64,000 bases of DNA, taken from positions 13,749-77,748 of the forward strand of contig JAHZIB010000003.1 in assembly GCA_019419955.1 (NCBI GenBank), written 5' to 3'. A model generated the notes under the pieces. The model made no database searches. It had not been told where the DNA came from and saw only the letters and a program-made list of their open reading frames with translations. Position 1 is the first letter of the stretch, and the number at the start of each line of letters is the position of its first letter. Positions 36,000 through 38,900 of this stretch are shown here, in pieces. A program made the position numbers and the translations under genes. This stretch comes from Clostridiales bacterium. Its GTDB lineage: Bacteria; Bacillota; Clostridia; TANB77; CAG-508.

Positions 36000-38900
36000 A
36001 TGAGAGCTAAAGTAGCAAAAATTATAGTATTTACTGTAATAATGATTGTTGCCTTATTTGGTACAGTCAATATACTAAAGAATAAGGTTCTTGCCGTCGA
36101 AGGTGAAAATTCTAGTAAAAATAATAATCTTGTTGCTAACATAGGAGAAAGAGTAGAAGGGGAACCTAATCCAGATGAATATAATTATGAAAGTTCTTGT
36201 GGTTCATTTTGGGAAGCAAGGGAAAGAAATACATTGCCTCTACCATTACCGGCTTATGATGGATACCAAATCTACTGTTCTGAGCATGGTGTGGATGCAG
36301 AAGTACTTGACAACTACCCATACTCATATAAGGAAATAGAAGCATCAAATGGTAGAGGAACATCTGGAAGCCCATGTGTTACATTAGAACCACCAGCAGG
36401 TACAATTTCTCCAATAGGATATGAAGCAATAAATTCAGCAGATTTACCACCAGTAGCTGCATACATCATCTCAGATAGCCCACAAGGGCAGTGGACAGCA
36501 GAAAAGCAACGTGGTCTATGGAATCTTTCTGAATATACAGGTGGATTAATTAGAATATTAGGACATTCCGCAAATGATGGTCCATCTAAATATGATACAG
36601 AAGGAATATATTATTATTACTATGACCAAGCTGTTAGAGGAAAAGGACTTCAACCGGAAAATCAAACTATTACAAGTGAGCAATTAGGTTCAAATCCATC
36701 AGCAGAAGAACTTGAAAAAGTATTAAGAGTAAATATTAATTCTGAAACAGGAGAATACATTGTAGGACCATTTAAGATGGATTATACTAATGGTAGATAT
36801 GATAATATTGCATTTTCTGGTGTATCTAATATGGAAGTATTGGGATATAATGCAAAAGGAGAACTGGTTAGAGGAGCAAAAGAAAACGAAGATAGTGGAG
36901 AAGAAGCTATAAAAGTTGAAAAAATAATTTTGGCTGATAAAGTAACGGGAGCTTTAGGATCTTCACAAGAACCAGACTACTTTACACCAGATCAAGATAA
37001 AGTAGATAGAACAGAACAAATATATCCAGAACCAGAACAAGAATTTTACATAGTATACTCAGATCCAAATGCAGAATTATCACCAAACGATGAAGATAGA
37101 GTTGCAAAGATATGCTTAAAAGTAAAATTTCAATACATGCTTGCATATGGTGAATATACCGAATATGAAGGTACAAAATTGACAGTACAACAAAAACATG
37201 AGCATCCTAGTTTGGAGACTTGTACAAAAAGCATTTATTTACAAAGTGCTCACCAACAAAATCAAATATGTGTTGATGCGATAAGAGTTCTATATGAGCA
37301 AGAACTTATTATATGTGGTGGTGAAGAGCCAATAGACACGACAATGGAGCTTGGAGGACATGTATGGGAAGATGGAGTAGCAACTAAGGAGTCTAAAGCA
37401 GATGGAGTAAGCAATACAGATGGAGAAGGAATAGACACACCACTTCCAAATGTAAAAGTAACACTATATGAGACAGAAAATGGAAGTGATGGAGAGATTG
37501 CTACACTAATGACAGATCCTAATGAAGCAGGAATAGATGAAGCAGAAGTAATGCATAGAATTAATTCAACCTTTACAGATGAAAATGGCGATTACTTGTT
37601 CAGAGGATTAAATCCAATGAAGAAGTACTATGTAACATTTGAGTATAATGGGCAGACATATTTACCTACAGAATACTTAAATACTGGTTCAACTCAATAT
37701 AATTCAGTACAAGATATGGTAAATGCAGGTTTATATAATACAAATGAATGGGAAGTAACATCAAAAGGAACCGAGGCTGAAACAGCAGGTAGTGTTCAAG
37801 GAGTAGATATTGGAAGAAGTGAATTTGACCAAAGATATAAAGAGATTGCATCATATCCAGAAAACTATACTTCAAGTAATTCTTTAGGACAAGTTGGAGA
37901 AAAGAATGCGGTTTTTACAAAATTAGAATTGATGGGTTATGAATTAAGTGATAGTGGCACTTATTCGCAAACAGAAACTCAATTAATAGATGGTTTCAAA
38001 TATGATGAAAGAGGACTAGAGACAGATGAATATGCAGAGGGTGTAATAAGCCAGAAAGTAAAAGAATTTATTAATACAAATAAAAAATTCCCTTCTGATG
38101 ATGAAATGAAATCAATCTATAGTGAAATTGCAGGTGGAGATCAGGATACTTGGATGAAACTACAATTTATAGAAGATTGCTATATTAATGCTTACTCAGG
38201 TTCACCATTAAATGGAGGACAGGTAGACTTATATCCTGTATATGACCAATTTAAGATTAACAAAGAAATAAATGGAACATATGATATGAGTTCAGATATT
38301 ATAGATGGTGTGGAATATAAACCAATATATCCTGGACAATACTATGTGAATTTAGGTCTATGGAGAAGGCAAGAATTTGATATGGCACTTAGAAAAGATG
38401 TCTACAAAGCAGCACTTAAAATAAACAATAAAACAGTTGTATATGATTATAACCAAAGAAATATTGACAAACCAGAAGATTCTGAAAATAGCAATAATCA
38501 GGCAGATGGTCAGGACAATGAATCATATTGGGATATAAACGTAAGAATGTCAGATTATAATGCATACTATGGGGCATCATATAATGAAAGTGGCAGTAAA
38601 GGATATAACAGAGAGTTATATCAGGAAGACTATAACTATAGTAGTAGCGAATTAGGACATCCAGGTTCAGATTTAGAGGTATATATCACATATAAGATTT
38701 CACTTAGAAACCAATCACAAAGTATTGAAGGAAGAATTAAGGAAGTAGTTGACTATTATGATAATGAATTTACTTTTAAACCAAACCTATCTTGGGTAAT
38801 GTTCCAAAATGAAAATAGCTTTGGAGAACCAGATGATAATGAATATTATTCAATGATGGAACAGGAGCAAAGTGTAATTGATGGAGAAAGCACAGCAGCA

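Follow-up and report, generated by a model that had tools for sequence, protein, structure and literature searches.

The 64,000-nucleotide stretch of Clostridiales bacterium DNA analysed here (contig JAHZIB010000003.1; the window) contains two paralogous genes for large surface proteins, B1 and B2. The initial annotation had recognized signatures of Gram-positive thioester domains (TEDs) at the N-termini of both and had named a cysteine and a glutamine 77 residues apart as the bonding pair. The locus raises the question whether these heads belong to the thioester adhesins and, if so, which glutamine would bond to the cysteine. The B1 gene (36000–41441, + strand), as defined by its open reading frame (ORF) and translation, runs from an ATG start to the stop and encodes 1813 amino acids. 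On balance we consider it likely that its N-terminal ~390 residues form a very divergent, class II-like TED with a bond between Cys93 and Gln420, and that Gln170 and Trp174 belong to an auxiliary helix motif. This reading is based on conservation, the order of predicted secondary-structure elements and weak profile homology, from which we infer the formation of the bond and the nature of its target.

Three sequence motifs are known from TEDs (Miller et al. 2018, PMC6194298). The bonding cysteine is located on strand C within a [YFL]C-hydrophobic-hydrophilic motif. The second motif, TQXX-hydrophobic-W, lies on helix α2; its Gln and Trp form hydrogen bonds to the backbone of the cysteine and are dispensable for bond formation. 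The bonding glutamine belongs to a third, weak motif (hydrophobic-Q-hydrophilic-hydrophobic-hydrophobic) on the C-terminal strand Q and follows the cysteine at a distance of 171 residues in SaTIE and 204 residues in EfmTIE86. The Q-x-A/G-hydrophobic-W signature of the initial annotation corresponds to the helix motif, and a spacing of 77 residues therefore suits that motif and not the bonding glutamine. In naming Gln170 of B1 and its B2 counterpart as thioester-forming residues, two TED motifs had been merged.

A script run on the translations reproduced both motif pairs at the codons originally assigned to them, with a Cys-to-Gln spacing of 77 residues in B1 as well as in B2. In B1, the predicted thioester residue Cys93 (codon 36276–36278, +) is part of the sequence YQIYCSEHG, in which the third motif position is occupied by Ser (YCSE) and not by a hydrophobic residue. 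The hexapeptide KQRGLW (Lys169 to Trp174; 36504–36521, +), with Gln170 at 36507–36509 within AEKQRGLW, is the counterpart of the TED helix motif as judged by conservation, structure prediction and profile alignment. In B2, the cysteine codon (47268–47270, +; HLIYCINKNG) and the codon of the helix-motif glutamine (47499–47501, +; KQYAIW within GLKQYAIW) are both found in the ORF 47154–48236.

Relatives of B1 were hard to find with a word-indexed search, which returned only 3 of them. When 1.84 billion cluster representatives were searched exhaustively with a profile, 68 matched, mostly of 1500–2300 amino acids. A scan of the GTDB species genomes with the full-length alignment A6 resulted in 77 loci. 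All of them belong to genomes of uncultured Clostridia that were assembled from the gut of humans, chickens, rabbits or mice and include Clostridium sp. CAG:273 and CAG:245. The origin of all relatives from gut metagenome-assembled genomes is in line with the host- or partner-associated lifestyle suggested earlier.

Conservation was counted in a 121-sequence family alignment (~120 relatives from at least 77 species). Cys93 is present in 109 of 120 rows. The remainder consists of 6 gaps and 5 misaligned divergent members, which still have the cysteine motif further upstream (e.g. NVIYCAEHG or GNILCGDQG). The residue is invariant in 52 of 52 and in alignment A3. Position 92 is Tyr in 92 and Phe in 18 sequences, position 95 is Glu, Gln or Asn, and position 97 is Gly in 99 sequences; the resulting consensus [YF]C[IVAT][EQN] agrees with the cysteine motif of TEDs. 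Gln170 and Trp174 are each kept in 117 of 120 rows, accompanied by Lys at position 169 (82 sequences) and Ala at position 172 (93 sequences). The family helix motif [KIR]QxA[ILVM]W agrees with that of TEDs except at the Thr position, where another residue, in most members Lys, is found. Across the family the Cys-to-Gln spacing is not fixed at 77 residues but varies between 71 and 128, reaching ~230 in a divergent subgroup.

A further glutamine, Gln420 (codon 37257–37259, +; HQQNQICVDAIR), is the candidate thioester-forming residue by its conservation, its position on a predicted β-strand and its local context. It is kept in 102 of the 103 sequences covering this region and is nearly invariant in alignment A3. 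Its surroundings follow the pattern Q-[DKRES]-L/M-L/M-x-A (in relatives FQRLLSATG, SQSLLSATG and GQKLMAADA) and resemble YQRLMSS of TIEpLS20 as well as VQKLMSAG and VQSLMSAG of Listeria TEDs. Position 429 is Arg in 95 sequences. The conserved residues follow each other in the order Cys93, Gln170, Trp174 and Gln420 and correspond to those given as characteristic of TEDs (PMC6194298). The predicted thioester would accordingly link Cys93 and Gln420, the latter probably being a better candidate than Gln170.

The TED-like module comprises B1 residues 58–448 (36171–37343, +), with a head, an inserted β-sandwich and a long β-hairpin, as delimited by AlphaFold2 (AF2), the family profile and hhalign. 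With an alignment of 31 sequences, AF2 modeled this region at a predicted local distance difference test score (pLDDT) of 91.8 and a predicted template modeling score (pTM) of 0.87; a model calculated with 4 sequences (pLDDT 39) was unusable. Residue i of the model corresponds to B1 residue i + 57. The head contains short strands (model residues 13–16, 33–36, 63–66 and 82–91), the second of which ends with Cys93 (model Cys36), and three helices (94–100, 110–118 and 141–155), the second of which bears KQRGLW. The helices are followed by a predicted seven-strand β-sandwich (B1 ~243–353; 36726–37058, +), whose strands were assigned by DSSP to model residues 186–190, 195–204, 216–226, 232–234, 251–255, 262–266 and 291–296. 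A very long predicted β-hairpin (B1 ~370–438; 37107–37313, +) comes next, with strands of ~30 residues (model 313–344 and 351–381). Gln420 (model Gln363) is located on the second of these strands.

The TED fold consists of a six-stranded barrel together with a bundle of three helices. In class II TEDs a seven-stranded sandwich is inserted between α3 and strand P, and an extended P/Q hairpin returns to the head in a slipknot (PMC6194298). Four head strands, two hairpin strands and three helices in our model add up to the published barrel-plus-bundle count. Mapped by way of the secondary-structure string, the predicted order of elements appears to match that of class II TEDs.

The turn of the hairpin (~37190–37225; B1 398–408) has the sequence HEH...C408 in B1. 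Cys408 is conserved in 76 of 89 sequences, and many relatives (P0004, P0005, P0030, P0045 and others) carry His/Cys-rich inserts with HxH and CxxC motifs and up to ~60 residues at this position. Judging from these motifs, the turn may form a metal-binding tip.

For a profile-profile comparison we drew on plasmid records, in which 21 class II TEDs were annotated as thioester-domain or SpaA-related proteins; they took the place of homologue searches for a broad TED profile, which gave 1 and then 14 matches. Just two class II subfamilies are represented in this set, and class I is absent; one member is identical to the SaTIE-TED fragment of PDB entry 6FX6 (TIE profile match, E = 2.4e-5). An hhalign alignment of A3 with the set resulted in P = 4.6e-4 and a score of 35.7 and paired Cys93 with the cysteine of FC[IV][EDQ] and KQxAiW with TQxxiW. 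The score was 13.7 for the reversed TED profile and at most 26.7 for 40 shuffles of 6-column blocks, and seven other 390-residue slices of B proteins gave P-values of 0.13–0.68. Three versions of the N-terminal alignment yielded P = 5e-4 to 8e-3; the match to the TIEpLS20 subfamily alone was weak (P = 0.034–0.099). The profile-profile signal is specific but modest. As far as the presence of a thioester domain is concerned, the initial annotation is supported by the conserved residues, the order of secondary-structure elements and this weak but specific match; its choice of the bonding glutamine is not.

A number of observations weigh against the assignment as a TED. Chief among them is the result of a Foldseek search of the model against the PDB, which returned nothing significant (best E = 8.5e-3, TM 0.14) and no TED in the top 50, though the PDB holds TEDs such as 6FX6. 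A Foldseek search against BFVD gave nothing significant either. Pfam and NCBIfam contained no TED or TQXA match for B1, B2 and close homologues at E up to 10, and 31 diverse family members had 0 matches to TED (PF08341), TED_2 (PF20610) and NCBIfam at E ≤ 1. Searches of PDB sequences with phmmer and profile hidden Markov models (B1, alignments A2 and A3) found no TED. The hhalign probability of the match described above is only 33%, and the strand of Gln420 alone is not significant (P = 0.19). The distance from Cys93 to Gln420 amounts to 327 residues, as compared to 171–204 residues in solved class II TEDs, and Lys is found in the family where TEDs have Thr in front of the helix glutamine. The search with curated TED profiles is a weak test, since the class II TED adhesin TIEpLS20, whose C68S mutant is inactive (PMC8092201), scored only 28.8 bits with TED_2 and 23.6 bits with TED as a positive control, barely over the cut-offs. 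A phmmer search from TIEpLS20 gave no link to any solved TED.

With these points in mind we assign a minor, though still appreciable, probability to a new adhesive or structural head that forms no thioester. Cys93 would then remain a free thiol, bind a metal or form a disulfide, e.g. with Cys408, and the likeness to TEDs would be convergent or superficial. The missing TED profile and Foldseek matches and the low hhalign probability speak for such a head. So do the conservation of Cys408 and, in many members, hairpin-tip inserts with CxxC and HxH, which suggest a metal site. What it leaves unexplained is the joint invariance and order of the cysteine, the Q..W pair and the distal glutamine on strand, helix and strand, and the hhalign score lies above all controls. 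A disulfide between Cys93 and Cys408 was rejected as the cause of the invariance of Cys93: at least 9 sequences with Cys93 and the distal glutamine have no Cys408, so this pair cannot explain it. A thioester between Cys93 and Gln170, as originally proposed, seems quite improbable. Gln170 is as conserved as Cys93, and the equivalent glutamine adjoins the thioester in known TEDs (PMC6194298), so that Gln170 is probably near Cys93 in space. In the solved TEDs of both classes, however, the Gln and Trp of this motif are dispensable for the bond and it is the distal glutamine that bonds (PMC6194298). In addition, hhalign places Gln170 on the TQ motif, and the conservation of the distal glutamine in all but one of the sequences would have no explanation.

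An invariant cysteine in a secreted domain could also belong to a cysteine-dependent enzyme displayed on the cell surface, for example a peptidase or transglutaminase-like domain. We regard this as very unlikely, because the invariant and near-invariant columns include no conserved His, Asp or Asn for a catalytic dyad or triad, which led us to reject a cysteine protease. Moreover, Cys93 ends a β-strand and does not start a helix, and no peptidase or transglutaminase family was matched. Finally, the motifs are short and degenerate and might be chance matches without function: the six-frame ORF segments of the window (100 amino acids or longer; 23,078 amino acids in total) contain [YFL]C.[DENQ] alone 7 times. 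In the same segments, however, Q.[AG]-hydrophobic-W occurs 2 times, in B1 and B2 only, and a cysteine and a glutamine motif 50–140 residues apart are likewise confined to these two proteins. The pair also persists in ~120 homologues, which come from at least 77 species, with the surrounding head sequence diverging past BLASTP detection. Chance is hence an explanation that we can hardly credit.

Based on the preferred Cys93–Gln420 assignment we propose the following mode of action for the B1 head. Cys93 would be presented at the end of a β-strand, and the KQxA-hydrophobic-W helix with Gln170 and Trp174 would line the site, as the TQXX-hydrophobic-W helix does in known TEDs. The seven-strand sandwich would be inserted after the helices, and the long hairpin, which carries Gln420, would return to the head. 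An internal thioester could then form between Cys93 and Gln420, with ammonia being released. Attack of this thioester by an amine, typically a lysine, of a host or partner molecule would tie the bacterium covalently to its target through an isopeptide bond.

A more far-reaching version would make the B-type head a third structural class of TEDs, characterized by an enlarged sandwich, a ~100 Å hairpin with a metal-binding His/Cys tip and a membrane anchor in place of sortase attachment. Its amine target would be no host molecule but the A protein encoded next to it or another cell-surface partner, and the conserved A-B pair of gut Clostridia would build a covalent two-protein fibre without sortase. 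We consider this version unlikely.

Among known systems the B-type head is closest to class II TEDs (BaTIE 6FWV, SaTIE 6FX6, EfmTIE86 and TIEpLS20; PF08341 and PF20610). In common with them it is an N-terminal head on an immunoglobulin (Ig)-like stalk, with [YF]C-hydrophobic-[EQN] on a β-strand, Q-x-x-hydrophobic-W on the second main helix, a predicted seven-strand sandwich after the helices, a distal and nearly invariant candidate glutamine on the second of two long strands predicted to form a hairpin, and a weak, collinear hhalign match. It differs from class II TEDs by the missing Pfam, NCBIfam and Foldseek matches, by the residue in front of the helix glutamine, which is Lys, Ile or Arg and not Thr, by the larger Cys-to-Gln distance and by hairpin strands of ~30 residues with His/Cys-rich inserts at the tip. 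There is no DP motif after the distal glutamine, and an Arg is found nine residues downstream instead. Further differences are an anchor composed of LPPFG and a transmembrane helix, not LPXTG, and the CLIPPER-containing gene that accompanies the B-type gene on its upstream side in nearly all 77 loci. The three motif types and the proposed Cys-Gln thioester capturing a target amine are shared with class I TEDs (SfbI-TED 5A0L, Cpa, CpTIE 5A0G and PnTIE 5A0N). These have an extra helix α0 and no β-sandwich insertion, and the large insertion in the B1 module places it closer to class II. The B-type family is not captured by current TED models and departs from known TEDs in several respects. In being missed by the Pfam TED model it resembles clusters of TED-like adhesins that were recognized only by iterative searches combined with AlphaFold (Monzon et al. 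2022, PMC9210967).

Most work on thioester adhesins has dealt with pathogens, e.g. of the genera Streptococcus, Staphylococcus, Enterococcus and Bacillus. Should the B-type head prove to be a working TED, the range of covalent adhesion would grow by a clade of at least 77 uncultured species of Clostridia from the guts of humans, chickens, rabbits and mice. Because neither Pfam nor NCBIfam detects the family, surveys relying on those models would undercount the thioester adhesins of the gut microbiome. The A-B locus may be a colonisation locus.

The remainder of B1 is consistent with a Sec-exported, membrane-anchored fibrillar surface protein, as far as can be judged from the sequence. The protein begins with a predicted Sec signal peptide (36000–36098, +; MRAKVAKIIVFTVIMIVALFGTVNILKNKVLA, followed by VEG), identified by eye from a basic N-terminus, a hydrophobic core and an AxA-like site. 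The TED-like head is followed by a long Ig-like stalk with Pfam matches to CarboxypepD_reg (residues 505–552) and SdrD_B (residues 1139–1235). At the C-terminal end an ILPPFG motif and a transmembrane helix are found (41091–41189, +), without LPXTG. An additional acidic, Gly/Pro-rich tail of ~80 amino acids is present in B1 alone. An identical B1 protein is encoded on at least 18 contigs from several samples.

N-terminal extensions of 200–430 residues precede the TED-like module in several relatives (L040–L042, L074 and L077–L079). Pfam revealed no adhesin family in nine unusual N-termini of B-type relatives; all of them except L099 and the truncated L090 carry both motifs. The protein of locus L099 (8519–13780) has neither the cysteine nor the QxxhW motif in its first 680 residues and combines a different head with the same stalk. 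Two B1-related metagenome fragments, P0001 and P0002, have defective gene calls: the end of P0001 is frameshifted, and P0002 is fused to a 5'-3' exonuclease domain and is probably a chimeric assembly.

B2 (46994–52254, +) is distributed over three frames according to a frame analysis: a signal peptide from the ATG at 46994, an ORF at 47154–48236 with the two motifs, and an ORF at 48229–52254 with the remaining 1341 amino acids. Of the two proteins originally described as having ~1800 amino acids, only B1 is thus a continuous chain. One frameshift is located after the signal peptide (46994–47160), the other between the cysteine-bearing head and the distal glutamine (48200–48240). The counterpart of Gln420 (RESQDAIEAIGDR; codon 48268–48270, +) lies past the second frameshift and was recognized by its Q-to-R spacing, which at nine residues equals that of B1. 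In at least 6 assemblies from different samples, gene calls give split products of 344 and 1341 amino acids, and in 5 of these independent assemblies the DNA at 46980–48300 is 100% identical and gapless. The frameshifts are therefore real, and a sequencing error as their source was ruled out. B2 is probably a pseudogene, i.e. a decayed copy, unless it is recoded. As the second frameshift separates the cysteine from the distal glutamine, B2 cannot form the bond as a single chain.

A BLASTP comparison of B1 and B2 could not align the first ~190 residues of the heads, in which the motifs are nonetheless retained. The identity is 40% in the sandwich and 53% in the stalk. Faster divergence of the head than of the stalk would be expected for the specificity-determining tip of an adhesin.

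Each B gene is preceded by an A-type gene. A1 (30983–35980, +), upstream of B1, encodes 1665 amino acids with CLIPPER/DUF11 repeats and SdrD_B (Pfam and NCBIfam), a C-terminal SLVTG and a transmembrane helix. Its paralogue A2 (42004–46980, +; 38.5% identity; translation and Pfam) is located upstream of B2. In fibrillar adhesins, CLIPPER domains build the stalk and contain isopeptide bonds (PMC12617251). A partner of this kind fits the reading of B1 as a thioester adhesin, as does the placement of its head on an Ig-like stalk. The likeness to CLIPPER (DUF11) adhesins concerns the repeats of A1 and A2 and not the head of B1, which has no CLIPPER match. In nearly all 77 loci the B-type gene has an A-type gene (~1660 amino acids; CLIPPER/DUF11 and SdrD_B) directly upstream, and several of these show the tandem A-B-A-B arrangement of the window. 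The pair is often located downstream of mreBCD, a penicillin-binding protein gene and minC. Its conservation beside mreBCD and minC makes it a candidate for a core surface structure of these organisms.

The C-terminal signals are located at 41091–41189 in B1, 35860–35980 in A1, 46860–46980 in A2 and ~52140–52254 in B2. B-type proteins end with [IV]ILPPFG (LPPFG in 64 of 81, LPPYG in 6 of 81), a transmembrane helix and KKVLKK, and A-type proteins with [SG][LIV]VTG, a transmembrane helix and IKKxVLNKK. An LPXTG sorting signal is absent from the C-termini of both types, and no sortase-like ORF (TLxTC) was found in the window or in the 77 related loci. By their sequence the two C-terminal signals nevertheless look like sorting signals, though not of the LPXTG type.

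The A-B pair is often preceded by three small divergent genes. In the window these are located upstream of A1 at 29648–30055, 30045–30503 and 30522–30674 (all on the - strand) and encode Asn/Ser-rich proteins of 135, 152 and 50 amino acids, the 152-residue product having no Pfam match. Homologues were found in 33, 53 and 33 of the 77 related loci, respectively, and the three genes may belong to the A-B system. Downstream of B2, three further genes encode a 1059-residue protein with a type I dockerin and Big_13 (52568–55747), a 1094-residue protein without Pfam match (55710–58994) and a 227-residue cohesin-domain protein (59104–59787). These three genes are not conserved in the related loci; in the window they suggest that a cohesin-dockerin surface assembly adjoins the A-B cluster. 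At 10483–13387 an AAA_14/DUF4143 ATPase comes after a large serine recombinase with Resolvase, Recombinase and Zn_ribbon_recom domains, and this region may be the remnant of a mobile element.

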